This document shows positions 383-45,586 of a stretch of DNA of 64,000 nucleotides, piece after piece. Both the position numbers and the translations under genes were made by a program. The notes beneath the pieces are model-generated. The model did no database searches, was not told the origin of the DNA, and saw nothing but the letters and a program-made list of their open reading frames with translations. The stretch spans positions 310,001 to 374,000 of the forward strand of contig CAWKCK010000017.1 of assembly GCA_963848135.1 (NCBI GenBank), written 5' to 3'. The DNA comes from an uncultured delta proteobacterium (GTDB lineage: Bacteria > Desulfobacterota > Desulfobacteria > Desulfobacterales > SG8-13). Position 1 is the first letter of the stretch. The number at the start of each line of letters is the position of its first letter.

Positions 383-1339
383 TTAGGCCAATGACTTCAG
401 TTGTTCCACGAAATCGGGAAACAGTTTGAACAGTGGGTGATTCGGGTCCTTGGGCAGCTTCTTGGTTTCAGCAAAAGCTGCCGTGGCCAGAAAGGCATCA
501 GCCTCGGCGACTGCCGGCAGGATGCGTGTGGCACCCGCCATGGGGCCCGAAAATATCATGTCATGAAAGAAGAAGGCTGAAAGGGATTCTAAGGCCGCAT
601 CGGTAGCCGACCATCCCTTGAAGTCCCACATGTCCTTAAAACGTTTCAAATCCATGTAGGAACCATTGCTCGGAGCGCTGGCCGTCGGAAAGCCCCATTT
701 CTCTTTGACCATCCGATTGGCGATACCGCAAAACGCCGTGGCCGGCCCATTCATCACCGAGGTGTCGACAAAAATACTTTCGAACTTGGCGCCCACTTTA
801 TCGATGGCGTCCAGCAGTCTCTGGGTGCCAGTGACGCGTCCGCTCGGCATCTGATCTTCCTGGTCGAATGCCACCAGGAGCACGTGTTTGACGCCGATAT
901 CGGCAATTTCCTTGATTTCGGTTTCCAGATCCTTCTCCCAGACCGTCAGGCTGTTGTAAAACATACGGTCGAGCAACCCCTTTTCGGCACAATATGCCGC
1001 GCCCGCCAATTTGGGCTTCATCACCCAGGCGTCGATACAAAAAGGCATGCTGCTGACCTCACTGACGAAATCGATAAATGCTTTGAACTCATCACCCGTG
1101 TTGGCGACGATATCCGCCATTCCTGGTACGCCTGTTTCAGCCGTCAGGCGTTCCTGGGTCTTGAGGAGTTCCTCCGCCCGCTTTTCATCGAATCCTTCCT
1201 TGCGCTTGCCGGTAAACACCTTGTCGCCTTTCTGAAAAATCGAGCTGACGCATACGCAGGGGTACTCGCCGGGCTGCCCGCCAAATTTTACCCCACCAAC
1301 CTCGCAAACCTTTTGCTCGGTGCCGATTTGAAACATCAT
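383..1339 (-). CDS. MtrH-like methylcobamide:tetrahydrofolate/pterin methyltransferase (MtrH/MtgA/CmuB family)
   Basis: N-terminal GVKFGGQPGEYP motif typical of MtrH; 318 aa; GGAGG RBS. Confidence 0.85.
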   Translation of the reverse strand: MMFQIGTEQKVCEVGGVKFGGQPGEYPCVCVSSIFQKGDKVFTGKRKEGFDEKRAEELLKTQERLTAETGVPGMADIVANTGDEFKAFIDFVSEVSSMPFCIDAWVMKPKLAGAAYCAEKGLLDRMFYNSLTVWEKDLETEIKEIADIGVKHVLLVAFDQEDQMPSGRVTGTQRLLDAIDKVGAKFESIFVDTSVMNGPATAFCGIANRMVKEKWGFPTASAPSNGSYMDLKRFKDMWDFKGWSATDAALESLSAFFFHDMIFSGPMAGATRILPAVAEADAFLATAAFAETKKLPKDPNHPLFKLFPDFVEQLKSLA

Positions 1340-1736: not shown

Positions 1737-2243
1737 ATGAAAGAAAAATTTGCCCACTTGGTCGACAAAGCCATTGAACTGGGTGCCACCGATGCCAAAC
1801 AGATACCGGTCAGCAGCATCGTTTTCGATTCCAGGTCCTATTTGAAATGCCGCTTCGGTTGCAACCGGTGGGGTAAATACTGGACCTGTCCGCCCCATCT
1901 CGAAATTACGCCGGAACGGTTCATGGATGCCTTCGCTCAATACCACCAGGCGATCGTCATCAAATCCTCAGATCCCAAAATCGGGCAGGATGTCAGTGTG
2001 GCTATCGAAAAAGAGGCCATGTTGACATTGGGGTGCACGTTCGCCTTTGCCATGGTTCTCTGCGTCGAATGCGAAGACTGCGCTTACCCCGACCCGTGCC
2101 GCTATCCCCATCTGGCCCGCCCATCGATGGACGCTTACGGTATCGATATCGGCAAGACACTGGCGCCACTGGGCTTCCAGGTGGAACTCGATGCCGGGGG
2201 CCAACTCCTTCCGGCCTGGTACAGCATGGTCCTGATCGATTGA
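1737..2243 (+). CDS. DUF2284-like Cys-rich metal-binding protein
   Basis: CRFGCNRWGKYWTCPP, CVECEDC..PCRYP..ARPSMDAYGID pattern. Confidence 0.8.
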   Translation: MKEKFAHLVDKAIELGATDAKQIPVSSIVFDSRSYLKCRFGCNRWGKYWTCPPHLEITPERFMDAFAQYHQAIVIKSSDPKIGQDVSVAIEKEAMLTLGCTFAFAMVLCVECEDCAYPDPCRYPHLARPSMDAYGIDIGKTLAPLGFQVELDAGGQLLPAWYSMVLID

Positions 2244-2257
2244 AACGGAGGGAAACC

Positions 2258-2869
2258 ATGTCGATCGGCGTTATCTGCTGCCGCGTGCTTGAACGAGAGA
2301 TACGTGCTGTCACCGCTGATATACCGGAGGTCACTCACCTGGAAGTCATGGATTGGGGGCTGCATGTTCAGCCCGAACGGTTGCACAACCGGATATGCAA
2401 GAGGATCAGAGAATTACAGGATCGCGTGGATGCCATCGTGCTGGGCTATGGCCGATGCCAGACTATGGATAAGCTATCGGGTAATTTTTCGGTCCCCATT
2501 TTCTATCCACCCGCCGAAGACTGTATCGGCGTCCTTTTGGGTCAAGAGCGATATGAAAAAGAGCTCGGTCGTGAACCCGGTACGTGGTTTTTGACCCCAG
2601 GCTGGACCGAACTCGGCATGGCGTTCGTGTTTCACGAACTGCAGGTGCAGCATATGGCCGAAAAGGGGATCGATCCCCTGCGTGTTGCCCGGCGAATGCT
2701 CGATGGTTTTACACGAGCCTTACTGATAGATTCGGGATTAAACGATGGAATGGCCCTTGATCAAAAGGCTGAGGCAATAGCCGCTGAATTCGGTTGGCGG
2801 TTGGAGAAAACCGAAGGGACGCTGGCCAATTTGCGGAAAACCATTCAGCAAGCTTTATCCCTAAAATAA
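2258..2869 (+). CDS. DUF1638-like protein (corrinoid methyltransferase-associated)
   Basis: GGAGG RBS before ATG 2258; ICCRVLEREI, GLHVQPERL, LGYGRC, DCIGVLLG, TWFLTPGW motifs. Confidence 0.8.
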   Translation: MSIGVICCRVLEREIRAVTADIPEVTHLEVMDWGLHVQPERLHNRICKRIRELQDRVDAIVLGYGRCQTMDKLSGNFSVPIFYPPAEDCIGVLLGQERYEKELGREPGTWFLTPGWTELGMAFVFHELQVQHMAEKGIDPLRVARRMLDGFTRALLIDSGLNDGMALDQKAEAIAAEFGWRLEKTEGTLANLRKTIQQALSLK

Positions 2870-3028: not shown

Positions 3029-4081
3029 CTAAAGACGTGCCAGCGCCGGGCTCGGTTTGCGTCCGTATTCCCTGGCGGTTTTTACGATAGCGCGCATGTT
3101 ATCCTCTTTGATATCTGGCCACAGGTCGCAACCGGGCCAGATGGCGTCTATACCGCCGTCGATGTTGGCCTTGATACCGGCCACGGCCTCATCAACCGTT
3201 GTCTCTTCCTTGCATGGCAGCGCAAACACATCGAAATTGCCGAATATTAGGGCATCGTTGCCCAGTTTTTCACGCGAAGCCGCAAGATTATTTTTGATGT
3301 CGACACTAACGGCGTCTGCTCCGCAGTCGTTCATCATTTCGATGATCAGATCTGTTGCGCCGCAAATGTGCAGTACTTTGGGAGCGTCCCACGCAGCCAG
3401 GATGCGCTGCATACGCGGCTGGATGACGGTCTTCCACGTACGCGGGCTAATCAGGTCCGAGCCAGTGCCCATTTCCCGCAGGGTAATGAAATCGGCCCCT
3501 GCTGCCAGGTAAGCCTGCCCGATCTTGATGATCATATCCGAGACTTTATCCAGGGTTTCTTCCACCATATCTTTTTGCTTAAAAATCCCCTTGAGCAGCA
3601 GATCGAGCTCCAGTAACTGCCCACACATGGTAAAGGGACCCAGTTGCCATGCGCCGAGGGCCAACTCCGGTGCTTCCTTCACACATATTTTCATGGCTTC
3701 GATCACCATGGGCATACGACTTAATTCCATAATATTTTCCGGAATAACGACCTCGTCCATGCTCTTCCACATCTTGTTGGGAATGGTCGGATAGAGGATG
3801 TCCATGGCGTCATCATAGAGGCTGATCTCGTTGCCGCAGGCCTGCGATTCGCAAGTCATGTCAAACGGTACGACCACTGAGTCGAAACCATACATTCGGC
3901 TGCTCAAAATGGCCGCTTTCGCCATTTTCTCGGCGTCGCTGTGAATCTGCGGAAACTTGTAGCCCAACTCTTTAATGGCCGGTAATAGCACCATTCCCAT
4001 GCCACTGAAAAAGGGCATCGTATCCACAGGCTCTTTACGGAAACACTTCATAACACGTTCTTTAGGGGTTAATTCTGCCAT
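3029..4081 (-). CDS. MtaA/CmuA-family corrinoid methyltransferase (UroD fold)
   Basis: 350 aa; GPFT motif, HxC zinc motif (VLHICG), GNFD, PGCD. Confidence 0.88.
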   Translation of the reverse strand: MAELTPKERVMKCFRKEPVDTMPFFSGMGMVLLPAIKELGYKFPQIHSDAEKMAKAAILSSRMYGFDSVVVPFDMTCESQACGNEISLYDDAMDILYPTIPNKMWKSMDEVVIPENIMELSRMPMVIEAMKICVKEAPELALGAWQLGPFTMCGQLLELDLLLKGIFKQKDMVEETLDKVSDMIIKIGQAYLAAGADFITLREMGTGSDLISPRTWKTVIQPRMQRILAAWDAPKVLHICGATDLIIEMMNDCGADAVSVDIKNNLAASREKLGNDALIFGNFDVFALPCKEETTVDEAVAGIKANIDGGIDAIWPGCDLWPDIKEDNMRAIVKTAREYGRKPSPALARL

Positions 4082-4424: not shown

Positions 4425-5090
4425 TTAAAGATCCGGATCGACCAATCCCAATTGAATGGCAAAGTGGATCAATTTGACCGGCGAGTCGATGTTGAGCTTT
4501 TCCAGAATATTGGCGCGGTGGGTTTTGATCGTGCTGATGCTGACGCACAGCATGTCGGCAATTTCGCGGGTGGAGTGCCCCTCGCCGATTAGCTGGAACA
4601 CCTCGCGCTCACGATTGGAGAGCTGATTGTAGCGTTCGGCGATGGACGAGCATTTTCGCCGCGGAGACCGATAGGTATCGACCAGAACTTTGGAGATGGT
4701 GGGACTCAGAAACGTCTCGTTTCGCATGGCGGAATGGATGGCGTTGATGATATCGCGACCGCTGGCATCTTTGAGCAGATAGCCGGAGACACCGGTTTCC
4801 ATGAGTTCGTGAATATAGTGCTCATGGGAGTACATCGACAGAATCAGGATTTTCGTCTTCGGCAAATGCTTCCGTATTCTCTTGGCAGCCTCGATGCCGT
4901 TCATCCGCGGCATGGCGATATCCATAATCACGATGTCCGGTTTGAGGGACAGGGCCTGATCCACTGCCCCCTGTCCATTGGTGGCTTCACCGACGATCTT
5001 GAGATCCGCCTGCTCTTCCAACAGGCGGGCCAGGCCCTGTCGCACGATTGTGTGGTCATCGGCGAGCAATATGCGTACGGGCTCATTCAC
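4425..5090 (-). CDS. NarL/LuxR-family response regulator
   Basis: ILLADDH, DIVIMDIAMP receiver; LSNREREV...STIKTHRANILEKL HTH; GTG start overlaps the kinase stop. Confidence 0.93.
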   Translation of the reverse strand: MNEPVRILLADDHTIVRQGLARLLEEQADLKIVGEATNGQGAVDQALSLKPDIVIMDIAMPRMNGIEAAKRIRKHLPKTKILILSMYSHEHYIHELMETGVSGYLLKDASGRDIINAIHSAMRNETFLSPTISKVLVDTYRSPRRKCSSIAERYNQLSNREREVFQLIGEGHSTREIADMLCVSISTIKTHRANILEKLNIDSPVKLIHFAIQLGLVDPDL

Positions 5091-7338
5091 AATGTAACTC
5101 CTCTTCCAAAGGAATTTCGATTCGGATCCGGGTACCATCCCCGGGTGTACTGCGCAACTGAAAGGTGCCTTTCAACAGGGAGGCCCGCTCCCGCATACCG
5201 AGAAGCCCGAGGCTGCGCTTGTCTTTTCCGATGATCTCTGCATTGAATCCAATCCCGTCATCTTCGGCCAAAAAAATGATCCGCGGGTAGCTCTTGATAA
5301 TGGATAAATTGAAATTTTCGGCACCGGAATATTTTAGCGCGTTGGTGAGGGTCTCCTGACTGAAGCGATACAAGACCGTTTCGATGTCAGGATCCAATCG
5401 GCGGTCAAATCCGATGGTCTGAAAATCGATATCCAGATCGGAATGTTTTCTGATTTCCTCGAGGTAGAGATTCAGAGCCGGCTCGAGCCCGAGGTCGCTG
5501 AGCAGCGTGGGGTGCAAATGGTAGGACATGCGCCGTATCTCGGCCGAGGTGCGCTGAACCATCTGTCGGATCTCTCCGATTTCGTTATTGAGTAAAGCGT
5601 TGGCCCCGTGTTTTTCCTCTAGACGATCCAAACCGAGTTTCACCGCCGTCAAGGATTGGCCGGCCTCGTCATGCAGTTCACGGGCAATACGGCGCCGCTC
5701 TTCTTCCTGGCTCTGGAACAATTTTTCGGTCAGTCGCCGCAGCTCCTGACGGTGCCGCCGGATCGTTCCCATCATCTGGATATTTTCGATGGCACCACCG
5801 AGGAAATTACCCAGGGAACCCATCAGGTGTATTTCATGGGCGCTCAAAACCCGCTTCGAAGGGATACTGAGTCCGAAAAAACCGACGGCTTTGCCTTTGA
5901 ATGTAATTAAAAAACAGGTCAACCAGAGGTTGGTCTGCCCCCCGGTTGCGCGATAACGAATTTGAAATGAGGGAAACGACGCTTCGGGAGGCAAACCGAC
6001 ATCTTTCTCGATCAGATGCTGCATCAGGAGCGCATCGTTGAAAACCACCTCGTCGGTCTCTTCGGCGACGGCCTCGGGTATATTGTATCTGGCCCGAAGC
6101 AAGACCTTTTTGGTCTCATGATCGATAAGAAAAAGGCCGCCTCTTTCCAGTCGCAACACCTGAATGACCTTTTCGAGCGTCACCTTGAGAATCTGGTCGA
6201 AATTCATGGTGTGGTTCAACGCCACGGCAATGCTGTTGACAATCGAGAGCTCCCGGTTGCGCTGACTGATGACCTCCTCGCTCTGTTTGCGCCGGGTGAT
6301 GTCTTTGATGATACCTTCGAACTCGATTTCGCCGGATGATGCATTCTCATACATACGGCTCGATATGAGTACATGCAGAAGGGAGCCGTCTCTCTTTTTG
6401 AACTCGGCTTCAAAATCTTTGACAAAACCCCTGTGGGTGATAATCGAAAGGAACCTGTTGCGGCCCGCGGGGTCACGATACAGATCCTCGGCCGTCAGAC
6501 ATGCCAGCAGCTCCGATTTGGATTTAAATCCCATCAGTTCGACACCAGCCTGATTGATGTCAATTATCTGTCCATCCAGGTTGGTGGCATAGATCATGTC
6601 GTGACTGCCTTCGAACACCCGGCGATACTTCTTTTCCCGCTTGGCAATCTCTTCCTGGAGTCGCCTGATTTCGGTAATATCTTTGAAGATTTCGAGCCCG
6701 CCTGTGATCCTTCCCGATTCATCCTGAAACGCTGAAGTGGAACAGATGATCGGAATTTGGTGGCCGTCTATATTGCTAATCTCATATTCGCGGTTGTGAA
6801 TATCCCGGCCTTCATCCACCGCTCGCTTCAGGGCGCAATCGGTCTCGCAGATGGTATTCTTGAATACATCCTTACAGTACATGCCCACGGCATCCCGGGC
6901 CGAAAAACCGGTTATTTTTTCGGCTGCCGGGTTAAAATAGGTAATTCGCCATTCGTGGTCGGTGGTAAAAAGACCATCTGGCAAACGATTGAGGATCTCA
7001 ACGAAGCTCTCCTCTTTTTGATAGATTCTTTCCAAGACACTGCTATGGTAACGCTGAAGCTGTTCGGCGATGAATGCGTCCGGCCCTTTGCTGAAGGCTT
7101 CACTCCGGACAATAAAACACGAACAGGTCAGGCAGGCGGCTATTTTATGAAAAAAACCCTCACCGATAGTTTCTGTACAATGGGTCTTAGGAACCAGCCA
7201 GCATGCCATGATTCGCTTTTCATGAACCGGACATAGGACGTTTTTACACCGGATCAATTCCCAGCACGGTTGCCTCTCCGCCAAGGCCCTGTTTTGCCGG
7301 GCTATGCTAATGCGGTGATTTTCGAGCAATGAACTCAC
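5083..7338 (-). CDS. PAS-PAS-GAF sensor histidine kinase (HisKA_3 type) with Cys-rich N-terminus
   Basis: EERRRIARELHDEAGQSL H-box; DDGIGF, GLLGMRER; two PAS domains. Confidence 0.92.
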   Translation of the reverse strand: MSSLLENHRISIARQNRALAERQPCWELIRCKNVLCPVHEKRIMACWLVPKTHCTETIGEGFFHKIAACLTCSCFIVRSEAFSKGPDAFIAEQLQRYHSSVLERIYQKEESFVEILNRLPDGLFTTDHEWRITYFNPAAEKITGFSARDAVGMYCKDVFKNTICETDCALKRAVDEGRDIHNREYEISNIDGHQIPIICSTSAFQDESGRITGGLEIFKDITEIRRLQEEIAKREKKYRRVFEGSHDMIYATNLDGQIIDINQAGVELMGFKSKSELLACLTAEDLYRDPAGRNRFLSIITHRGFVKDFEAEFKKRDGSLLHVLISSRMYENASSGEIEFEGIIKDITRRKQSEEVISQRNRELSIVNSIAVALNHTMNFDQILKVTLEKVIQVLRLERGGLFLIDHETKKVLLRARYNIPEAVAEETDEVVFNDALLMQHLIEKDVGLPPEASFPSFQIRYRATGGQTNLWLTCFLITFKGKAVGFFGLSIPSKRVLSAHEIHLMGSLGNFLGGAIENIQMMGTIRRHRQELRRLTEKLFQSQEEERRRIARELHDEAGQSLTAVKLGLDRLEEKHGANALLNNEIGEIRQMVQRTSAEIRRMSYHLHPTLLSDLGLEPALNLYLEEIRKHSDLDIDFQTIGFDRRLDPDIETVLYRFSQETLTNALKYSGAENFNLSIIKSYPRIIFLAEDDGIGFNAEIIGKDKRSLGLLGMRERASLLKGTFQLRSTPGDGTRIRIEIPLEEELHCE

Positions 7339-7909
7339 AGTACGAATCTCCCTTTGCCCGGCAAACCGGTTCCGTTGCCAGAAAGGTGAAACACCCTCCC
7401 GGATAATCTTCGCCGTAAATCAAATCCATGAATGCCCCCGCCACCCCGCGGAGCATGTAGCACCTACCTTTGCGGGCTTGCCCATAGTCCTGCTGATATC
7501 CTTCGGCCTCATAGGAATCACTGACGCGCATAACAAGTTTTTCTTCGGGGATGAGTTCCTTTACCGCCAGATCCCCCCAGCCGAAAGCCGTGGCCACTGC
7601 GGCAAAACCCATAATCTGGTCTTCTTTACGCTCGATCATCGGTTGCACGATTTCATCCCATTCCCACGAATTGCGAATGCCCTGGAAGGTGGCATAACCG
7701 CATTCCTGGGCGGCTTTGATCAGAAGATTTTCAGCTTCGGTTTGACGCGATGATCCGATTTTTTTCTCGAAATCAAAGCTGAGCCGGTTATAGTAGCGCA
7801 CCGAAAAAAGCGAGAGATAGACCCCAAAGAGCGGAATGATCCCTTTCGATTCCCTGATCCGGCTGCCCTCCATAACGGCATGGACAATTTTAGCTCCGTC
7901 AATGGCCAC
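7307..7909 (-). CDS. V4R (4-vinyl reductase/hydrocarbon-binding) domain protein
   Basis: FGWG, CYMLRG, EPVCRAKGDSYCEF motifs. Confidence 0.8.
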   Translation of the reverse strand: MAIDGAKIVHAVMEGSRIRESKGIIPLFGVYLSLFSVRYYNRLSFDFEKKIGSSRQTEAENLLIKAAQECGYATFQGIRNSWEWDEIVQPMIERKEDQIMGFAAVATAFGWGDLAVKELIPEEKLVMRVSDSYEAEGYQQDYGQARKGRCYMLRGVAGAFMDLIYGEDYPGGCFTFLATEPVCRAKGDSYCEFIARKSPH

Positions 7910-8434
7910 TTAACGTACCTCCACCTGAAAAACACATTCATCATCACGCATCATCTTGCATCGGGTTTCCATTACCTTATAATGGCCGATCGGTCTGTCA
8001 CACACCGCTTCCAGCGCACCGGCGATCCAGCCTCGGGAAAAATGGCACCCGGGGCTGTGGCGTCTGCCATGCTTGGCCAGCCAACCGGTAACATGGTGGC
8101 TCGATGAGCTGACAATTTCCCCCCCGTCTATATCGATGTCCAGCGGATGAATGATGCCCAGACCACAATTCTGGTACATGATGGCCGCCATTTCCATTTT
8201 GGACTTGATCGTCCGCATCTCGTGGTATGTCGCGAGCATTGTCTTAAGGTCGTGATATGTGGCCTCCTCGGCCGCGCGGTAAATCAAGCGGACCCCTTCG
8301 TCACCCATCGTTTCCTCCAGGGTCCGCTGAAGGTTGATGTTGTAGTGGTGGCAATGAATGGTGATGGGTTGACCTGAAAGGACGATCCGATGATCATGCC
8401 GGTCAAGCTCTCGTTTCCAGTCGAATGGAGTCAT
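7910..8434 (-). CDS. V4R domain protein
   Basis: HCHHYN, GLG, CHFSRGWIAG, ETRCKMMRDDECVF; probable start MTPFDW at 8434. Confidence 0.8.
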   Translation of the reverse strand: MTPFDWKRELDRHDHRIVLSGQPITIHCHHYNINLQRTLEETMGDEGVRLIYRAAEEATYHDLKTMLATYHEMRTIKSKMEMAAIMYQNCGLGIIHPLDIDIDGGEIVSSSSHHVTGWLAKHGRRHSPGCHFSRGWIAGALEAVCDRPIGHYKVMETRCKMMRDDECVFQVEVR

Positions 8435-8655
8435 GGGTAACCTGCGTATAAACTGATTCGAAGTCGTTTGCACCTGTTGGGTGAAAATCAATAACCGAAT
8501 AATGGAACCCGCTTGGAAGCGGTATAGCACAGTTAAAGAACCATGTTAACCTTCAGGTTGGCAGGCCATCAAAAGCGCGGAGCATGTCCCCTTGCGAAGA
8601 TGAATAGACTTACCAGATATTGTCGTCAAGAGACTGTGCACGGGCCTATTCCGAA

Positions 8656-8723: not shown

Positions 8724-9713
8724 ATGAATCAACCAACGAAACAACGCTCTGATCGTAAGACCGATGTACTGCTGCTCTCCGGCTTTCTCGGTGCCGGTAA
8801 AACCACACTGTTAAAACGCATTCTCGCTTGGGAAACGGACCTATCCGATACGGTGGTCCTGGTTAACGAATTCGGTGATGTGGGTATCGACGGAGCGCTC
8901 CTCAAAAGCGCCGGTTCCGATGTGGTCGAACTCACCAGCGGCTGCATCTGCTGTACGTTGAGCAACGACCTGAGACAGTCCCTGATTCGCATCCGGCAGG
9001 ATTTCACGCCCCGGCGTATTTTCATCGAGTCCTCCGGGGTTGCCGACCCCACCGCTGTATTGCCTGTGTTAAGCAGTTCGCCACTATCCGAAACAATGAG
9101 ACTGGATAAAATCGTTACCGTCCTGGACGCGGATTTCTGGGAAGCCCGTGAAATTTTCGGGCGATTATTTTACAATCAACTCGAAACCGCCAACCTGATA
9201 CTGCTGAACAAAGTCGACCTTGTTGCCGATGCTGATATTCCCCAATTTCTTAAGGAGATCCATGACACTTTCCCGGACTGCCAAGTAATACCCACTGTGC
9301 GCTGCGGCATCGATCCGGCAGCGCTCTGGACCCCGGCAAGCCCCAAGAGCGTCATGCTCAAGCCGATACATGTGTTCGACGATATCACAACCGGCGTGCA
9401 TGAACACGATGATCACCAGGAAGAATGCATTCCGGTAAAGGCAACCCGCTTTGTGACCTTCTCGTTTCGTGAATCCCGAAAGTTGGATGAGGCATGCTTC
9501 AATCAGTTTGTCGCAGCACTACCACCGGAAGTCTTCCGAGTGAAAGGGCCGGTTCGCTTCATTGATCGAAGCATCATGCTCAACCACGTTGGGGGAAAAA
9601 GCGAGATCTTACCGTGGTCAGAGGATGGCGAAACCACTCTGGCTTTCATCGGCTGGAACATTGCGGCAGAGCAAATCCTCGATCGACTGCGTGGGTGCAT
9701 CACCGGAAAGTGA
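8724..9713 (+). CDS. CobW/COG0523-family metallochaperone GTPase
   Basis: SGFLGAGKTT, VNEFG, GCICC, ESSGVADP, NKVD, His/acidic stretch, RVKG. Confidence 0.93.
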   Translation: MNQPTKQRSDRKTDVLLLSGFLGAGKTTLLKRILAWETDLSDTVVLVNEFGDVGIDGALLKSAGSDVVELTSGCICCTLSNDLRQSLIRIRQDFTPRRIFIESSGVADPTAVLPVLSSSPLSETMRLDKIVTVLDADFWEAREIFGRLFYNQLETANLILLNKVDLVADADIPQFLKEIHDTFPDCQVIPTVRCGIDPAALWTPASPKSVMLKPIHVFDDITTGVHEHDDHQEECIPVKATRFVTFSFRESRKLDEACFNQFVAALPPEVFRVKGPVRFIDRSIMLNHVGGKSEILPWSEDGETTLAFIGWNIAAEQILDRLRGCITGK

Positions 9714-9721
9714 TTAAAACC

Positions 9722-10756
9722 ATGCGGGCAACACCTCCTCTGACCAAAGAACGTTTTTTGAAAAACCTCGAAAAGGCCTTGCGGCTTCTGATCTGCGATC
9801 GGCTCAACGCCAACGCCGACGATGACACCCGTAAGGCGCTGGCATCCGATGTCACCGGTTTCGTCCGTCAAAACGCCGCGGAGTACTCGCTGGAAGAACT
9901 GGTGGAGACATTTTCCTCCTATGATGCCACCATCGGTCTGTTCTACGAGTTTCAGGAAGCCAAACGGTTGGTCAACCAAACGCCTGTATCCCTTCAGGAG
10001 CCGTCGCTAAAGTCCGGGCCTCGAAATTCAGCCGACCGCTGGCAGGAATCGCTTACCGGAATGGTGTTCGTCTGGGTGCCCGGCGGATCATTCGAGATGG
10101 GCAGCGGAGACTGGGACGATGAAGGGCTGGCCGATGAACAACCGGTTCACGAGGTATGGCTCGATGGTTTCTGGATGGCACAAACGCCGGTGACTGCGGC
10201 GCAGTACCGCTGTTTTACCGGAGCCAATCCGGACCACCTTTCAATGCACGCCTCTGCTGAAGCAGAAGCCAACGGTGACGATTTTCCTGTGGTGGGTGTT
10301 TCCTGGTTGGATGCCGCAGCATTTTCCCGCTGGCTGTCGCAACGATCCGGCAAACAGTTTCGGCTACCCAGTGAGGCCCAATGGGAATATGCGGCGCGCA
10401 GCGGCGGCCGGGCCGAAAAATACGCCGGAGGCGACACCGCCGGTGAAGTGGCCTGGTATGCGGATAACAGCCAGGACCGCATTCATCGCATCGCGCGTAA
10501 AAAACCCAATGGGCTGGATATCCACGACATGTGCGGAAACGTCTGTGAGTGGTGTTTGGACCACTACACCAGATCCGCCTACCGCGATCACGACGGCCAC
10601 AATCCTATTATTCAGTTAGATGACGATACCGTCCGGGTGGTACGCGGTGGAAGCTGGCGATACGGCGCAAGAGACGTGCGCTGCGCGGACCGGGGGCTAT
10701 TGGTTGCCGACCGTCGGGAAATCGACGTGGGCTTCCGGTTGATACGCTTCGCTTGA
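9722..10756 (+). CDS. Formylglycine-generating enzyme (FGE-sulfatase/SUMF1) domain protein with unknown N-terminal domain
   Basis: FEMGS, PVVGVSW, RLPSEAQWEYAAR, DMCGNVCEW, RGGSW, GFRL; start 9710 or 9722. Confidence 0.88.
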   Translation: MRATPPLTKERFLKNLEKALRLLICDRLNANADDDTRKALASDVTGFVRQNAAEYSLEELVETFSSYDATIGLFYEFQEAKRLVNQTPVSLQEPSLKSGPRNSADRWQESLTGMVFVWVPGGSFEMGSGDWDDEGLADEQPVHEVWLDGFWMAQTPVTAAQYRCFTGANPDHLSMHASAEAEANGDDFPVVGVSWLDAAAFSRWLSQRSGKQFRLPSEAQWEYAARSGGRAEKYAGGDTAGEVAWYADNSQDRIHRIARKKPNGLDIHDMCGNVCEWCLDHYTRSAYRDHDGHNPIIQLDDDTVRVVRGGSWRYGARDVRCADRGLLVADRREIDVGFRLIRFA

Positions 10757-10907: not shown

Positions 10908-11468
10908 TCAACGCTGCCGCCGAGCGGCAATACCGACCCACAGGTCCCGGCGGTCCTTGTGAACGAGATCGAAACCCGCTCGGGCCAACCCGGCCTCGAC
11001 CCGGTGGGTGTTTCCAAGAATCATACCGGAACACAGCAAGAGGCCACCCGGTCGCAGTATGTCGAACAGGTCGTTGAGCAATGCGAGGATCACCCCCGGC
11101 AGAATGTTCACGGCTGCAATGTCGACCCGCCACTTCAGCGGCGCAAGCGAATCGGCGACAAAAACGGTGCCCCGGTCCGAAGGGACCCCGTTGGTCTTGA
11201 GATTGCCCCGTGCAACTCCGGCGACGGAGAAATATTTGTCGAATCCAACCGCCGTTTCAGCACCCAACCGGGCGGCAACGATCATGAGTATACCGCTACC
11301 GGTACCAACATCCAAAAAACGATCTCCCGGTTTCAGGTACCGCTGCAGCATGTCGAGGCACAATTTGGTTGTGGGATGCGCGCCAGAGCCGAAGGCCGCG
11401 TCGGTGCTCAAACACAGGTTTGCAAGTTGGATGCGGGGGGGACCGGCTTCTCCAGGATTCATTACCAT
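10908..11468 (-). CDS. PrmA-like class I SAM methyltransferase (short form)
   Basis: AFGSGAHPTT, LDVGTGSGIL, SGMI motifs; lacks the PrmA N-terminal domain. Confidence 0.8.
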   Translation of the reverse strand: MVMNPGEAGPPRIQLANLCLSTDAAFGSGAHPTTKLCLDMLQRYLKPGDRFLDVGTGSGILMIVAARLGAETAVGFDKYFSVAGVARGNLKTNGVPSDRGTVFVADSLAPLKWRVDIAAVNILPGVILALLNDLFDILRPGGLLLCSGMILGNTHRVEAGLARAGFDLVHKDRRDLWVGIAARRQR

Positions 11469-11514
11469 AGGGATTCAATCCCCCGATTCAATGACCTCCG
11501 GCAAAACTGGAGGT

Positions 11515-12336
11515 TTACCGTTGATCATTTTTAAAAACCTTTGACAGAGTCCGCTCGCCCACTTGCAAGACAAACTTTTGCAGTCGCCGTTCGGTACCCA
11601 TCTCGGCGATCTCCTTGATAACGGCTATTTTGGCCAAAACGGACTTTCGCGCCCCGAACAGCGCGGCCATCAAAAAATAGCTGAAATCCGAGTGATAGTG
11701 TTTTTCGAAAAGGTCGCGCCAATGCCCCAAGGGCTCGTCCAGGGCGTATACCTCCGACAGCACGTTCATGATCGCTTTGTCTGAAGGCGGGTGATCGGCA
11801 TCGCTGTGCACCCGGGTGCAGTAATCCATTTCAAAAGCCACAGCACCGGCAGGAACCTGGATGCCAAGATCATGCCAGTTGCGGATAAGGGCCTTTTTGC
11901 CGTCACGGTGCTGTCGTGTTTTAGCCTTTCCAGCCGCAGCACTCCAAAGCCCGTAAGCCCTACAGGCAAAGGGTCTATGGTGGTAGACGCTACACTCCCC
12001 CGCCTCCAGAAATGGACAACCAGGCTGTTGCAAGGGTGTGACCAGGTAAAACGCTACGAACCGGCGTGTCAGTGCCACACGGTGATCCTCCGGCAGACCG
12101 GCCAGAACATCGATCCACTGCAAAGCCTCCAAAAGCGTCATCTCCGGCATGAAGCGGCAGCAGATTCCGGGGGTTGGGCAATCGCATCGGGTCGACGGCA
12201 ACCGAAGGTACAACCCCTGGAGGGCATCAAAGGAGCCCCTCCCCGGGTCAAGGGCGCTCTGAATGTCAGCATGTGTCAACATGGGAATTCCATTGGTGTG
12301 GGTAACAAAGAGGTCACTGTCGCACGGATCCGCCAT
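11515..12336 (-). CDS. YkgJ/FliB-like cysteine-cluster (putative Fe-S/Zn) protein
   Basis: CDCPTPGICC...CPFL...CSVYHHRPFACRAYG; start may be 12282. Confidence 0.8.
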   Translation of the reverse strand: MADPCDSDLFVTHTNGIPMLTHADIQSALDPGRGSFDALQGLYLRLPSTRCDCPTPGICCRFMPEMTLLEALQWIDVLAGLPEDHRVALTRRFVAFYLVTPLQQPGCPFLEAGECSVYHHRPFACRAYGLWSAAAGKAKTRQHRDGKKALIRNWHDLGIQVPAGAVAFEMDYCTRVHSDADHPPSDKAIMNVLSEVYALDEPLGHWRDLFEKHYHSDFSYFLMAALFGARKSVLAKIAVIKEIAEMGTERRLQKFVLQVGERTLSKVFKNDQR

Positions 12337-12375
12337 GCGGGATAAGAAGGCCGTTCGGAAGGTTCCATCCAGGAC

Positions 12376-13356
12376 TCAGCAGCATTTGTAAAGCCGCAGC
12401 AGACGCTCATCCATCACAAAGTAGAATTTCATAAAGGACGAGCCGTCCCAGCGTGTCCGCACACCGTGCAGGGTATCGGCCAATTCGATGGTGCTCCGCA
12501 GATGGGTTATCATTATCAGTTGGGTATTGGCGGCCACATCCTTCAGAAAGGCCTGCATCGACTTGTGGTGGCTGTAATCCAACGACGGCTCGACTTCGTC
12601 CAACAGATAAAACGGGTTGTCCAGCTGGTTGAATACGGCCAATTTCAAGGCGAGGCTCGTGATCGCTTTTTCACCGCCGGACAACTGGTGAGCCCGGCGA
12701 ACGCGGTTACCCGGCAGTGTGACCTCGATATCAAGGCCTTTACGCCCATTATGCGCCGGCAGCTCGAGTCGTACTTCAGCCAGCGGAATGAGATATTGCA
12801 TATAGCGCCGCAGACAATCGGCAATGGCGTCTCGCATATGCTCTGAAAAATCCGTCGTGGAATCCAAATCCAGCAAGGCACAGATTCTCTCGAAACGCAT
12901 GGCAGGATCGAGAAGCAGGATATCGTTTATTTGCTCCTGTCTGATGATGGTTTTAAGCGCATGATTCAGTTTGTAGGTCGATAGTATCTGGCGGTATTCG
13001 GACAAGCGATAACATTGGTCTCCGACATAGCAACGGTTTCCACCGTCCCGGTCAAATTCCCGCCGAAGCTTGAGTTTTGTGGCGTCTTCTTCTTTTCCTT
13101 GTTTGAATGTCAAATTCACCGCAATCCGGTCGGCTGGCGGATAGTCCTTGCTTCCAGCGAAAAACAGTTCTTTGTCGTCGTAACAGCGGACGCGATCAAG
13201 CTCATTTTCACCCAGAGCCCAGACGATGGCATCCAGAATGTTCGATTTACCGACCCCGTTGTTTCCAATAATAACGCTGATTCCGGGCTGAAAGCCCATA
13301 TTGGTATTTTCGGAGAAAGACTTAAAGCCTTCGATATTCACATCTTCAAGATACAT
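12376..13356 (-). CDS. Short SMC-head-like ABC ATPase without coiled coil or hinge
   Basis: IEGFKSF, Walker A GNNGVGKSN, Q-loop IIRQ, LSGGEK, LLDEVE, ITH in only 326 aa; ends KCC. Confidence 0.85.
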   Translation of the reverse strand: MYLEDVNIEGFKSFSENTNMGFQPGISVIIGNNGVGKSNILDAIVWALGENELDRVRCYDDKELFFAGSKDYPPADRIAVNLTFKQGKEEDATKLKLRREFDRDGGNRCYVGDQCYRLSEYRQILSTYKLNHALKTIIRQEQINDILLLDPAMRFERICALLDLDSTTDFSEHMRDAIADCLRRYMQYLIPLAEVRLELPAHNGRKGLDIEVTLPGNRVRRAHQLSGGEKAITSLALKLAVFNQLDNPFYLLDEVEPSLDYSHHKSMQAFLKDVAANTQLIMITHLRSTIELADTLHGVRTRWDGSSFMKFYFVMDERLLRLYKCC

Positions 13357-13654
13357 TACAGCTGCCTTTATTTTTGTTCCCGTAACGTCGTTGGATATCC
13401 GCAATCAACTCTTCCTGCATAGGAATCAGGGATTCGTAGACCAGCTCACCGTCCAAGGCGACGCTCGGCAACGATTTGGCTTTCAGTTCCCTGAAGCGCT
13501 GCACCCCTTCGCGCGTGCGCATGTCCCACTCGTGAACCTCGATAATCTTCTGTATTTCTTCCGGTAAAACCTTTACCGACTCCGCCATGTAGACGCAGGC
13601 CACTCACTGGTTGAAATCGGTCAAAAGGACATCTACAATAACCGGTTGGGTCAT
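13346..13654 (-). CDS. Probable selenoprotein: small thioredoxin-fold protein with UxxC motif
   Basis: GGAGG RBS, ATG 13654, MTQPVIVDVLLTDFNQ-TGA(13606-13604)-VACVYMAE...LPSVALDGEL, all in one frame. Confidence 0.82.
13562..13578 (-). promoter_or_regulatory. Putative bacterial SECIS apical hairpin
   Basis: mRNA CGGUAAA-GGU-UUUACCG stem-loop, loop about 32 nt 3' of the in-frame UGA. Confidence 0.6.
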
Positions 13655-13852
13655 GTCCCCTCCAGAAAACTCTTTCGTTCCCATTCACAAACGGTTGATA
13701 GCGCTTCAGAGCGCCCTTCGCATCAATGGGTTTATCTCTGTTTATGCCGCAGAACAAATAATGGCGGCTGCAACGAACTGAATGGCGCCGCAGCCGGCAA
13801 TTTTCAGAGAATACGGCCCAGTGGAGACACCCTCATTGGTGGTTGAACACTA

Positions 13853-14767
13853 TTATACCTGTATGACTTCGAACCGGGCATTACCATCGATGGATTCCAG
13901 CAATCCCCAGTTCAATCCATTCTGGTCGACAGCGGGACCGACACTGAGAAAATCCTTGCCGCCCACCGGCCAATGCCCCCACTGCCTGATCTGGCTGAAT
14001 ATAACGATATCCCCCTGGAATTGGGGAATCATGGCTTCAAGGGCAGGAAAAACCGATTCATCCTGCATGAAATCCGTCAGGTTGCATACCATATTCATCT
14101 CAAGCGCAAAAGGCTCGAAATCGGAGAAGCCGGGCAGTCTCAGAAGGTAATCACCAAAAAAAGCGATGCTTATTTTCGTGCCGAGATGGAACGTCAGCAC
14201 CTGTGGAAGTTGGATCAGCCAGTCCTGAATCTTCCGATCGGAAAAAGTCCAGTCATTCTCCCCCTGAATGGCCACGACTTCGTGCTTCCGAACCAAATTG
14301 ACCAATCGCTTGATATCGTTCCGTGTCGCATCCCCCGTCAGGTTGCCAAGAGAATAAATGGCTTCCACTCCGGCATCGGACATGTTGTCTATGATTTGTT
14401 CGAAAGCATCCGGGTTGCCGACCAAATCCCCTATGAGACCGACACGATATCGGGTTGATGGGTCGTTAAAAAGACGGAATGATTCAGCGGGGGCCATCCG
14501 TCCATCCATAGCCGCTGTGATAGCGACGGCCAGTTGATCCGGGCACGACGTCCCATTGCGACACTCTATTCCCCCAATGAACTGCAGGACGTCATCAATG
14601 GGGCGGCCGCGCAACAACCGGGCGACCAACTGAGCGTTTCCGGGGCAACCGCCACCCACGAAACGGAGGTCAGTCAAAATATCTTGCTGCAATTGAAAAT
14701 GAATCTCGGGTGGGCAGACACCAGTGGTTTTGAATATGAAACGTTGAAGTTTCGGGCTTTCACTCAT
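13853..14767 (-). CDS. TSCPD (TIGR03905-like) domain fused to degenerate metallophosphoesterase domain
   Basis: GVC..EI, GGGCPGN, GIECRNGTSCPDQLA; then IGDLVGN, LGNLTG, QGEND. Confidence 0.78.
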   Translation of the reverse strand: MSESPKLQRFIFKTTGVCPPEIHFQLQQDILTDLRFVGGGCPGNAQLVARLLRGRPIDDVLQFIGGIECRNGTSCPDQLAVAITAAMDGRMAPAESFRLFNDPSTRYRVGLIGDLVGNPDAFEQIIDNMSDAGVEAIYSLGNLTGDATRNDIKRLVNLVRKHEVVAIQGENDWTFSDRKIQDWLIQLPQVLTFHLGTKISIAFFGDYLLRLPGFSDFEPFALEMNMVCNLTDFMQDESVFPALEAMIPQFQGDIVIFSQIRQWGHWPVGGKDFLSVGPAVDQNGLNWGLLESIDGNARFEVIQV

Positions 14768-44620: not shown

Positions 44621-45586
44621 ATGACACCGTCGGAAGAAGCATTGATCAGAGGCCTTAACAGTGGCCTGTCACAGGAAATCACCGTTCGAATGCGATTGAC
44701 TGACGATCCCCGCAGCATCCGCATCATCGAATTCTGCAAAGATCTCGCCCGCCTCGTCCCCAAATTAAAAACCCGCCGCGAAGATGATTCGGCGGAAGGG
44801 CTCCCAGCGATCAGTATCGGGCCTCGAATTGACTATTGCGGTGTACCTTCCGGGAATGAAATAGCGCCATTTATCTATGCACTGACTGCTCTGGACAAGG
44901 GAACCGACAGCATTCCGCCAGACATTGTGCATCGGCTGCAAAATATCCACCCAGCATCAATGGTTACAATCTTCATCGCACCGTCCTGCCGGTTTTGTCC
45001 TGAGGCGCTGCACCAGATCATACCCCTGCCCATCGAAACTAAAGGGGTGCGTCTGACGATTATCGATACGACCCTTTTCAGTGATGTGGCCGAAATAAAT
45101 AATGTGCACTCGGTTCCGACCGTCATTGTTGACGGTCAATACCGCTGGACAGGAGGGGTTAGACTGTCGGAATTGTGCACAGCCATTGAAAATAGAGATC
45201 CGAGCAAACTCGACAGGGTCGCCCTTCAGCGACTGATAACAGAGGGTGGCGCATACGACCTGGCGCGAATGATGTTGAACAGCGGGATTTTATATCCAGC
45301 GTTTATCGATTTGCTGGTTGACGAAAATTTTACCGTGCGACTCGCAGCCATGGTGACCCTTGAGGAAATGGCAGCTGTAAATATCGCTGCCGCCCGGGCG
45401 GTCATCGACCCTCTCTGGAAGCGTTATCACAAATCAAACGATTCGGTAAAGGGCGATATTATGTACATCTTCGGAGAATTGAAGTCGCCAACGACTCTGG
45501 CCTATCTCCAATCGGCATTAAGCACCGAAACCAATCCCGAAATTAAAGCGGCCGCCCGGGAAGCCCTTGATATAATCGAGAAATAA
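44621..45586 (+). CDS. Thioredoxin-fold (AhpF N-terminal-like) protein with HEAT-like C-terminus
   Basis: YCGVPSGNE, CRFCP, SVPT; VRLAA and IKAAAREAL repeats. Confidence 0.75.
   Translation: MTPSEEALIRGLNSGLSQEITVRMRLTDDPRSIRIIEFCKDLARLVPKLKTRREDDSAEGLPAISIGPRIDYCGVPSGNEIAPFIYALTALDKGTDSIPPDIVHRLQNIHPASMVTIFIAPSCRFCPEALHQIIPLPIETKGVRLTIIDTTLFSDVAEINNVHSVPTVIVDGQYRWTGGVRLSELCTAIENRDPSKLDRVALQRLITEGGAYDLARMMLNSGILYPAFIDLLVDENFTVRLAAMVTLEEMAAVNIAAARAVIDPLWKRYHKSNDSVKGDIMYIFGELKSPTTLAYLQSALSTETNPEIKAAAREALDIIEK

Follow-up and report, generated by a model that had tools for sequence, protein, structure and literature searches.

A three-gene unit, conserved in sulfate-reducing bacteria, lies on the minus strand of a 64,000 nucleotide stretch from an uncultured delta proteobacterium of the Desulfobacterales lineage SG8-13 (the window, i.e. 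the whole of positions 310,001-374,000 of contig CAWKCK010000017.1; coordinates below count within the window unless stated otherwise). Its products are a TSCPD domain fused to a phosphoesterase-fold domain whose site is predicted to be dead, a UxxC selenoprotein, and an ATPase consisting of an SMC head without arms, with a CobW GTPase usually being encoded close by. From its anatomy and from the company it keeps in other genomes, the trio is best explained, at a rough probability of 0.45, as an optional module, driven by ATP and by selenol/thiol chemistry, whose task would be upkeep of the B12 cofactor, or of a metal site, in a corrinoid methyltransferase system composed of MtrH, an MtaA-like zinc enzyme, a corrinoid protein and RACo. 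The features of the trio, and of the two further genes with which it was initially grouped, are as follows:

13853-14767, minus strand: four-cysteine TSCPD domain fused to a putatively dead metallophosphoesterase-fold domain (304 amino acids); first gene of the trio
13346-13654, minus strand: selenoprotein with a modelled thioredoxin fold, U17-V-A-C20 (102 amino acids; the open reading frame as listed, 13346-13603, has 85)
13604-13606, minus strand: UGA read as selenocysteine, codon 17; TGA conserved, selA and selB in the genome
13561-13579, minus strand: hairpin resembling a selenocysteine insertion sequence (SECIS), with an 8-bp stem and a GGU loop, its apex 32 nt past the UGA
12376-13356, minus strand: armless SMC-head ATPase of ATP-binding cassette (ABC) type (326 amino acids from the ATG at 13356; listed open reading frame 12376-13404)
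11515-12336, minus strand: CxxCxxCC (YkgJ-type) cysteine-cluster protein (273 amino acids); a variable add-on 3' of the ATPase gene
10908-11468, minus strand: PrmA-like S-adenosylmethionine-dependent methyltransferase, catalytic half only (186 amino acids); a lineage-specific add-on

All five had been taken for one system in a first-pass annotation. The five co-oriented open reading frames (ORFs) are indeed there, the positions of the selenoprotein stop codon (13346-13348) and the ATPase ATG (13354-13356) confirm the 11-nt overlap that it described, and so are the cysteine and selenocysteine motifs to which it pointed, namely TSCPD at residues 73-77, UVAC, the C-terminal KCC and CDC...CC. As to the extent of the system, the core trio is conserved but the rest is not: among 59 loci from species-level genomes the CxxCxxCC gene occurs at 17, the PrmA-like methyltransferase gene at 4 and a nearby FGE-sulfatase gene at 3, so that the five-gene unit belongs to near relatives of the window only. 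Where present, the CxxCxxCC gene shares the strand of the trio and is no farther than 3 kb from it (16/16). Its product scores 21.8 bits with Pfam PF03692, just below the cut-off of 23 (26.3 bits in one other locus, L023), and a sequence search of the PDB with it gave no relative. The methyltransferase matches Pfam PrmA at 131.4 bits over profile positions 131-295 of 296, that is, the C-terminal half only. Promoter- and terminator-like sites were in no excess over shuffled expectation, and no Rfam family attained its gathering score over the window together with the 18 kb preceding it.

Full-length orthologues of the ATPase are present in 11 of 40 related genomes, and at 12 of 12 loci the order is TSCPD/metallophosphoesterase (MPE), selenoprotein, ATPase. 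The 59 loci come from a distribution scan of one genome per species; nearly all are titled as Desulfobacterales, Desulfobacteraceae, Deltaproteobacteria or Thermodesulfobacteriota metagenome-assembled genomes (MAGs), the Olavius Delta 1 symbiont and a Desulfosarcina being among them, and two are labelled Gammaproteobacteria or Pseudomonadota. Loci for which 1400 nt or more of downstream sequence is available, here termed evaluable, number 52; in all of them the TSCPD gene is followed by the selenoprotein gene, and in 50 the ATPase gene comes next. The first-pass annotation had allowed that the gene order might not be conserved elsewhere; comparison of gene neighbourhoods across genomes finds the three-gene order recurring, at 59 loci and thus far beyond chance, and holding down to 43-55% protein identity. 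On a broader scale the TSCPD/MPE gene is rare, with 5 occurrences in an even sample of 400 other genomes of the phylum, and a narrower profile built from distant members gave four loci, none outside Desulfobacterota having the full protein.

That the three genes are neighbours simply by descent within one clade, their products acting independently, is scarcely credible. All carriers are of one phylum, many being close kin, and in two assemblies with the other two genes the ATPase was not found, as such an explanation would have it. However, the order is kept while the flanks rearrange (cobA is 5' or 3', CobW is on either strand, and a DUF1638 gene is inserted at one locus, L099), the selenoprotein and ATPase genes overlap at start and stop, or are 1 nt apart, at 24 of 41 junctions measured, and protein identity as low as that just mentioned has not disturbed the arrangement.

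The locus with the insertion (L099:1483-3972, from a Desulfarculaceae MAG) has in succession the TSCPD/MPE gene, DUF1638, the selenoprotein gene and a same-strand CobW gene overlapping the selenoprotein end, with the ATPase of that lineage on a separate small contig (L108). Another relative carries the entire block twice (G008:C14 and G008:C18, or L019 and L020); the ATPase of one copy is in two frames, and in the other copy it is the gene for MtrH, a methyltransferase dealt with below, that has internal stops (two TGA and one TAA).

With regard to the selenoprotein, the short ORF reads on through a single in-frame TGA to an ATG at 13654, upstream of which is a ribosome binding site, GGAGG, and the motif so created is NQ-U-VAC. 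All 13 sequences compared, one from the window and the others from 12 related loci, have the TGA at codon 17, and the protein is conserved on either side of it, in residues 5-16 and 18-31. Across the 59 loci it is retained in 56 of 56 trio copies, and at two divergent loci in addition, no cysteine form being found among the 58 copies examined. The same genome encodes selB (374 bits, cut-off 242) and selA (622 bits, cut-off 268), the two genes for which a search was made. Judged from these comparisons of sequence, the selenoprotein is real and its selenocysteine obligate.

The accompanying SECIS-like hairpin appears in the minimum free energy fold. The whole 73 nt after the UGA folds no better than shuffled versions of it (z -0.47), but the hairpin alone does (-6.9 kcal/mol, z -2.15). 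Constraint beyond the amino acid sequence is evident in that synonymous variation is seen at 4 of 13 amino-acid-invariant degenerate codons within codons 17-35 versus 46 of 47 elsewhere (Fisher p 4e-7). In the alignment 96 of 96 stem cells are paired, and there are two compensatory pairs, equalled by 4 of 500 shuffles, though both pairs being in L099 the compensatory support amounts to that of a single lineage.

Pfam Thioredoxin_3 gives the selenoprotein 14.8 bits, under its cut-off of 24.8. An AlphaFold2 (AF2) model of it (mean predicted local distance difference test score, pLDDT, 84.1) has a beta-alpha-beta-alpha-beta-beta-alpha fold in which U17 precedes helix 1 (residues 18-28), and nearly all the listed Foldseek matches to this model are thioredoxins (TM 0.5-0.69), with a best E of just 1.8e-3; at the level of the model, then, a thioredoxin fold is confirmed. 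The family is without annotation in public databases. Public protein collections hold 1400 matches to it, for instance as truncated 'hypothetical proteins' of 76-80 amino acids, and of ten full-length calls fetched, nine put tryptophan at the TGA and one arginine. Uncovering a selenoprotein family that has no cysteine form in 58 copies, and whose public entries are just such truncated products, is of interest in its own right. It is not listed in the available part of the Zhang and Gladyshev 2007 survey of the Olavius symbionts (PMC1976440).

The nearest named family is NF047660 'HUIPC', at 45 bits far under its cut-off of 105, and the trio selenoprotein differs from it in having the motif NQ-U-[VIL]-A-C. 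HUIPC was reportedly introduced by Haft and Tolstoy in 2025. A true HUIPC paralogue, HEGE-H/Q-U-IPC with its TGA kept, is encoded between the CxxCxxCC and TSCPD genes in three loci (L050:5779-6030, L062:414-665 and L074:9679-9933). A cysteine-containing paralogue (Q-C-AAC) lies between DUF2284 and CobW genes in five others (L068, L070, L077, L080 and L084). Elsewhere in the window, a 321-amino-acid protein (44621-45586, plus strand) combining Thioredoxin_3 with HEAT repeats adjoins a GGDEF protein and is unrelated to the trio.

The ATPase scores 156.9 bits with Pfam SMC_N against a cut-off of 40. SMC_prok_B matches it only at its N- and C-terminal stretches, and with TIGR02168 likewise just two end stretches are matched, with a sum of 195.6 bits against a cut-off of 567. 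Positions 1-302 of a profile of 14 orthologues align with the engineered head of Thermotoga maritima SMC, 1e69, which is its best PDB match (E 2e-51); Walker A, the Q-loop, LSGGE, Walker B and the H-loop are invariant in the 14 sequences, so that the full set of ABC-type head motifs is shared with the heads of condensin-type SMC proteins. The absence of arms noted in the first-pass annotation is borne out: the protein has 326 amino acids, its profile aligns along the head construct, and it lacks a coiled coil, a hook and a hinge. The same genome encodes a separate, full-length SMC of 1220 amino acids, to the N-terminal lobe of which the ATPase is ~32% identical. As distinct from a condensin-type protein of about 1200 amino acids, then, this is a natural 326-amino-acid protein, and its gene is situated in a metabolic operon, where it and a selenoprotein gene overlap. 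Neither the Pfam-annotated neighbours nor the recurrent ORF clusters include a kleisin gene, no search directed at ScpA/ScpB having been made. A family-specific C-terminal extension of 25 residues ends in Lys-Cys-Cys; KCC-COOH is present in 43 of 43 orthologues examined, and also in a Desulfarculaceae relative at 43% identity. Public names for the protein are 'AAA family ATPase', 'chromosome segregation protein' and 'DUF2813'.

An SMC-family ATPase paired with a phosphoesterase fold invites comparison with DNA-directed machines, whether for repair, as with SbcCD / Mre11-Rad50, or for anti-phage defence of the MADS, Gabija or Septu type, which is built on an ABC ATPase. Common to the trio and SbcCD / Mre11-Rad50 is the gene for an SMC-superfamily ATPase beside one for a calcineurin-like phosphoesterase fold. 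Here the likeness thins: the trio lacks a zinc-hook coiled coil, the Mre11 motifs DxH, GD, GNHD/E, H and GHxH are not intact, the esterase is fused to TSCPD, and a selenoprotein gene separates the esterase and ATPase genes. The ATPase profile that reaches 2e-51 with the SMC head gives about 1e-18 with Rad50 heads, Rad50 models score 50-57 bits on the protein against cut-offs of 700-1087, and the esterase is of the Vps29/SapH and not the Mre11/SbcD type, so the analogy that the first-pass annotation drew is weak, though its own judgement that DNA repair is improbable gains support from the armless ATPase and the lost metal ligands of the esterase. On the defence side, PADLOC reports mad3 on the ATPase (138 bits) and mad2 on the SAM-binding region of the methyltransferase (61 bits). 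True SMC models outscore mad3 on the ATPase (195.6 versus 138 bits), the methyltransferase is found at just 4 of 59 loci, and the TSCPD/MPE protein, the selenoprotein, the CxxCxxCC protein and CobW are without a PADLOC match. In the available part of one account MAD3 partners MAD4, an OLD-type nuclease (PMC13662399), and no gene for a MAD4-like nuclease is at the locus, the context of which is a metabolic operon and not a defence island. A DNA-directed machine of any of these types is highly improbable. The MADS system as such was rejected, since the set mad1-mad8 is represented only by mad3 and a generic mad2.

The first gene product of the trio scores 49.3 bits with Pfam TSCPD over residues 13-86 (cut-off 22.8), with no Pfam match over residues 90-304, Metallophos included. 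It is just under the cut-off for TIGR03905 (64.1 versus 67.7 bits), and has 304 amino acids versus about 80 in that family. All 36 sequences compared have the TSCPD cysteines 18, 41, 69 and 75. Any likeness between this domain and IscU/NifU is weak (PDB profile E 0.014-0.06, hhalign probability just 1.8%). For the remainder, an AF2 model (pLDDT 85.8; predicted TM score, pTM, 0.79) gave 323 Foldseek matches at E <=0.001, of which all those listed have the MPE fold; at the top are PH1004, SapH (an Ap4A hydrolase) and Vps29, with COG0622 proteins, Rv0805 and LpxH also appearing and neither Mre11 nor SbcD being among the listed matches. A metallophosphoesterase fold of the Metallophos_2 / Vps29 / SapH type is confirmed to the extent that the model can do so.

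As regards the loss of metal ligands, a full-library HMMER search with the protein yielded about ten full-length clusters at 50% identity and, of more use here, a homologue, P0267, in which TSCPD is joined to a Metallophos_2 domain that scores above threshold (48.9 bits), together with two stand-alone phosphoesterases (P0284 and P0362). These three retain DxH / GD / H / GHTH; the window protein has at the corresponding positions D114-x-V116, N142, F204 and S258-Q259-x-R261, of which N142 and Q259 are invariant in its family. The first-pass annotation's claim that the esterase is without its metal ligands stands up in this comparison, and the domain is predicted to be catalytically dead. Loci encoding the P0267 fusion were not found among the genome contigs searched. 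Pertinent parallels are of two types. Vps29, an inert retromer scaffold, contributes many chains to the best fold matches as well as weak profile matches, and in both proteins the site is degenerate; its biology is unrelated, and identity is 12-18%. The other parallel is to class II (B12-dependent) ribonucleotide reductase (RNR), on which a TSCPD domain occurs and which is served by thioredoxin. With the tail of that enzyme the trio shares the four-cysteine domain, a partner gene for a thioredoxin-fold protein and a B12 context, but in the trio TSCPD is fused to a putatively dead phosphoesterase instead of a reductase, and the partner is an obligate selenoprotein. The automatic name of one TSCPD homologue in the Atlas, 'ribonucleoside-diphosphate reductase family', fits this link; other Atlas matches of stored homologues were their own clusters plus weak leads. 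In one database protein, P0222, the end of DUF1638 is fused in frame to TSCPD/MPE.

The surroundings of the trio include genes of B12-dependent methyl transfer and, as part of a larger block, genes for a sensor kinase and V4R proteins. Those in the window are:

8724-9713, plus strand: G3E metallochaperone GTPase of the COG0523/CobW family with a GCICC motif (Pfam cobW 153.8 bits, plus CobW_C)
7307-7909 and 7910-8530, minus strand: two tandem V4R-domain proteins (weak Pfam V4R matches)
5083-7338, minus strand: PAS/GAF histidine kinase (Pfam)
4425-5138, minus strand: LuxR-type response regulator (Pfam)
3029-4081, minus strand: corrinoid methyltransferase of the MtaA/CmuA type (URO-D 196.7 bits, NF004889 236.9 bits)
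1737-2243, plus strand: DUF2284 metal-binding protein (Pfam)
within 2033-2869, plus strand: DUF1638 domain (Pfam)
383-1339, minus strand: MtrH-family methyl-corrinoid:pterin methyltransferase (MtrH 169.2 bits, NF002142 278.5 bits)

The 18 kb 5' of the window encodes three more URO-D proteins, a corrinoid protein, RACo, DUF6951, DUF2284, two CobW paralogues, a TrxR-like protein and MeaB. Among the 34 loci of at least 15 kb, termed large loci here, CobW is the most constant companion of the trio (32 of 34, and no more than 3 kb away in the case of 29 of 43 gene copies; its NCBIfam matches, to ZigA and CobW models, are partial), any of MtrH, URO-D and DUF1638 is present in 30, V4R and a histidine kinase are each present in 21, and a response regulator in 16. 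Unbiased clustering of the 956 ORFs from the 59 loci brought out further recurrent partners. A true cobA gene (TIGR00708, 191.7 bits against a cut-off of 167.75) is in 14 loci, at a distance of up to 3 kb in 13; its strand is that of the trio every time, and it is placed either 5' of the trio or directly after the ATPase gene. DUF1638 is in 17, at 15 within 3 kb and in loci other than that of the window directly upstream of the trio; an FNR-like flavin reductase is in 15, every time within 3 kb; and a TrxR-like gene is directly 5' of the trio in five. Also recurrent are corrinoid proteins (11 loci), RACo (6), CbiM/CbiQO (4-5) and an MIP channel (4).

The linkage extends to the level of whole genomes. 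Among the 40 relatives an MtrH orthologue is present in 10 of the 11 that carry the trio versus 2 of the 29 that do not, both of these being fragmented assemblies, and in the sample of the phylum the corresponding figures are 5 of 5 and 16 of 395. The Fisher values, about 1e-6 to 1e-7, overstate the association since kin are not independent. A V4R orthologue (at least 69% identity) is likewise in 9 of 11 carrier relatives versus 2 of 29 non-carriers. Both the tie to neighbouring corrinoid methyltransferases and the co-occurrence with MtrH clusters that the first-pass annotation had anticipated are therefore found, the former in the 30 of 34 large loci as well as in the genome-level counts. As a separate matter, the MtrH orthologue is 87-97% identical in most carriers of three families, with the ATPase of the same genomes at 64-91%, which hints at strong constraint or at recent spread of the block.

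The converse association does not hold. Five MtrH loci without the trio were inspected; they have a core of MtrH, corrinoid protein and RACo, with URO-D and corrinoid protein detected in four, CobW-like matches in two, and no V4R genes. All five such genomes that were tested have selA, so availability of the selenocysteine machinery does not explain absence of the trio. Since RACo is in the same cluster, and the core occurs without the trio in 16 genomes, the trio is an optional accessory and not the activase. The suggestion of the first-pass annotation that it maintains or reactivates the corrinoid methyltransferases accordingly retains its genomic tie but not, with RACo already at hand, the role of activase.

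What such an accessory might do is best approached through the proteins that service B12. Servicing of the cofactor is favoured by the B12- and cobalt-related neighbours (cobA, DUF1638, CbiM and CobW), by a tie between DUF1638 and RamA, and by the adjoining flavoprotein reductases. According to the available part of one report, DUF1638 and a RamA-like protein are genetically required for B12-dependent methionine synthesis (10.1101/192971), and another, also available in part, predicts that DUF1638 acts as a partner when cobalamin is reductively recharged (PMC12478193). It is precisely the genes of such service proteins (RACo/RamA with DUF1638, CobA, CobW and MeaB) that adjoin the trio, and like RACo and MeaB the trio would, from its sequence, couple nucleotide hydrolysis to a B12 enzyme system. 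However, it is not homologous to RACo, with its ASKHA fold, or to the G3E GTPases, having instead an ABC/SMC head, a selenocysteine-containing thioredoxin and a four-cysteine domain, and for the methyltransferase core it is optional.

The biochemical steps, all of which we infer, might run as follows. Neighbouring flavoproteins (FNR-like, NfnB-like or TrxR-like) would supply reducing power to the selenoprotein, the selenolate/thiolate pair of which would exchange with the four-cysteine TSCPD domain, much as with the tail of class II RNR. The dead phosphoesterase domain could be a scaffold in the manner of Vps29. Engagement of two SMC heads, driven by ATP, would join their Cys-Cys tails and so grip and then release a soft ligand, most likely the cobalt of a corrinoid, or else a metal delivered by CobW, at a time of cofactor reduction, ligand removal, adenosylation (by CobA) or loading. 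The redox or metal-handling function proposed in the first-pass annotation we infer in the same sense. A bolder and rather doubtful version is an ATP-gated thiolate clamp, in which the paired Cys-Cys-COOH tails, the selenocysteine-containing thioredoxin and the TSCPD adaptor together ligate the corrinoid cobalt or the CobW-delivered metal and then strip, reduce and load the cofactor into a methyl-S/Se:tetrahydrofolate methyltransferase system. If the clamp were real, it would be the first natural armless SMC head outside DNA biology and a new class of B12 chaperone or reactivase that uses selenium chemistry.

Several points weigh against servicing of the cofactor or metal site by the trio. In the sample of the phylum 16 of 21 MtrH-carrying genomes are without it, and since the core occurs alone the trio is dispensable for the basic chemistry of methyl transfer. 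In one genome (G027) the trio and MtrH are about 1 Mb apart. With RACo present, classical reactivation of Co(II) to Co(I) needs no new ATPase; a general service for B12 would not predict limitation to one methyltransferase system; and no part of the trio has a recognised B12-binding domain. A cobalamin riboswitch was not found with Rfam in the window or the 18 kb upstream. Lastly, the two evaluable loci without an ATPase gene in third place are from assemblies that have none anywhere at E 1e-40 or better.

The same cysteines and selenocysteine could serve a different cargo. The trio might be a carrier for a soft metal or metalloid, or for a selenium or sulfur substrate, its sites binding thiophilic species (such as selenide, methyl-selenium, As(III) or Hg(II)) with ATP-driven hand-off to or from the corrinoid methyltransferases, and this, though unlikely, has points in its favour, beginning with the invariant C-terminal CC of the ATPase. 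The available part of an account by Haft and Gwadz gives CC-COOH and UxxC/CxCC thioredoxin-like proteins as hallmarks of organometallic systems, as in SaoC, SaoT and HgcB (10.1101/2022.07.06.499078), and the CC-COOH and UxxC of the trio match them so far as that account goes. With the SAO system and HgcB it has in common the theme of CC-COOH plus a UxxC thioredoxin-like selenoprotein and, from the same partial source, a SECIS with a stem of 7-8 bp and a GGU loop; it differs in that its CC tail is on a cytosolic ATPase and not on a lipoprotein or ferredoxin, and no MerB-like lyase or ABC importer is encoded at the trio, where neighbours were scanned by Pfam only. Foldseek, run with the selenoprotein model, lists the ArsD metallochaperone at ranks 16 and 42, and ArsD-ArsA is likewise a thioredoxin-fold protein with thiols at a helix start paired with a dimerising ATPase, but there are no ars genes with the trio. 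ArsA belongs to a different class of ATPase. Also in keeping with a carrier are the nearest NCBIfam relatives of DUF2284, which are the ArsM/DUF2284 and MbdU metal-binding selenoproteins, the MIP aquaporin, rare as it is (4 of 59 loci), and the URO-D enzyme of the window, with its His-x-Cys...Cys zinc ligands and its HICG and PGCD motifs, a His-Cys-Cys set being linked, in the available part of one study, to S- or Se-methyl substrates (PMC10418091). Yet none of the five proteins was matched by any Sao, Mer, Ars or Hgc model, and the most constant extra neighbours (cobA, DUF1638, CbiMQO and CobW) are specific to B12 or cobalt and not to metalloid resistance.

Those zinc ligands raise the further prospect of repair of the zinc site, or of its thiols, in an enzyme of the MtaA type, CobW giving Zn(II), the thiol relay re-reducing the His-Cys-Cys ligands and the ATPase opening the target. 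CobW (COG0523) being the most constant neighbour (32/34), the presence nearby of URO-D genes with HxC...C ligands, and the TrxR-like and flavin reductase genes adjoining the trio are all as expected on this account. It is nevertheless distinctly improbable, as just 2 of 21 copies of the URO-D gene lie within 3 kb, the recurrence of cobA, DUF1638 and CbiM goes unexplained, and the MtaA-type enzymes of the 16 genomes without the trio do without it.

With respect to novelty, no published description of the trio was found in the literature on TSCPD/TIGR03905/PF12637, SMC heads, selenoproteins and corrinoid, the neighbourhood description for HUIPC (Haft and Tolstoy 2025) being outside the comparison, and the first-pass annotation was right to present an undescribed, co-oriented cassette rich in cysteine and selenocysteine. 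If cofactor or metal-site servicing is the function, anaerobes would possess a new kind of accessory machine for methyl transfer that depends on B12. The cycling of sulfur, selenium and C1 compounds, in sediments as well as in symbionts like the Olavius Delta 1 bacterium, is fed by this process. The SMC head, the motor of chromosome organisers, would in that event have been taken over for the handling of a cofactor or metal. The trio also provides a testable set of partners for TSCPD/TIGR03905 and DUF1638, two orphan families with links to B12 enzymes.

Some minor features of the surrounding genes deserve mention. The RACo gene just upstream of the window (L086:14295-16224, or G000:C17 at about 306.3-308.2 kb) is in two overlapping ORFs in different frames, one having Fer2, a linker and half the middle domain and the other the remaining middle domain and ASKHA, and a frameshift, recoding or an error of assembly could explain this. 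The FGE-sulfatase / SUMF1-like gene (9614-10756, plus strand) is convergent to the operon and its ORF overlaps the 3' end of the CobW gene by 100 nt; its true start is probably later, since the Pfam domain begins at residue 152. Similarly, the ORFs listed for DUF2284 and DUF1638 (1737-2869) overlap by about 210 nt, and as the DUF1638 domain begins at ORF residue 106 its start is probably downstream of 2243.

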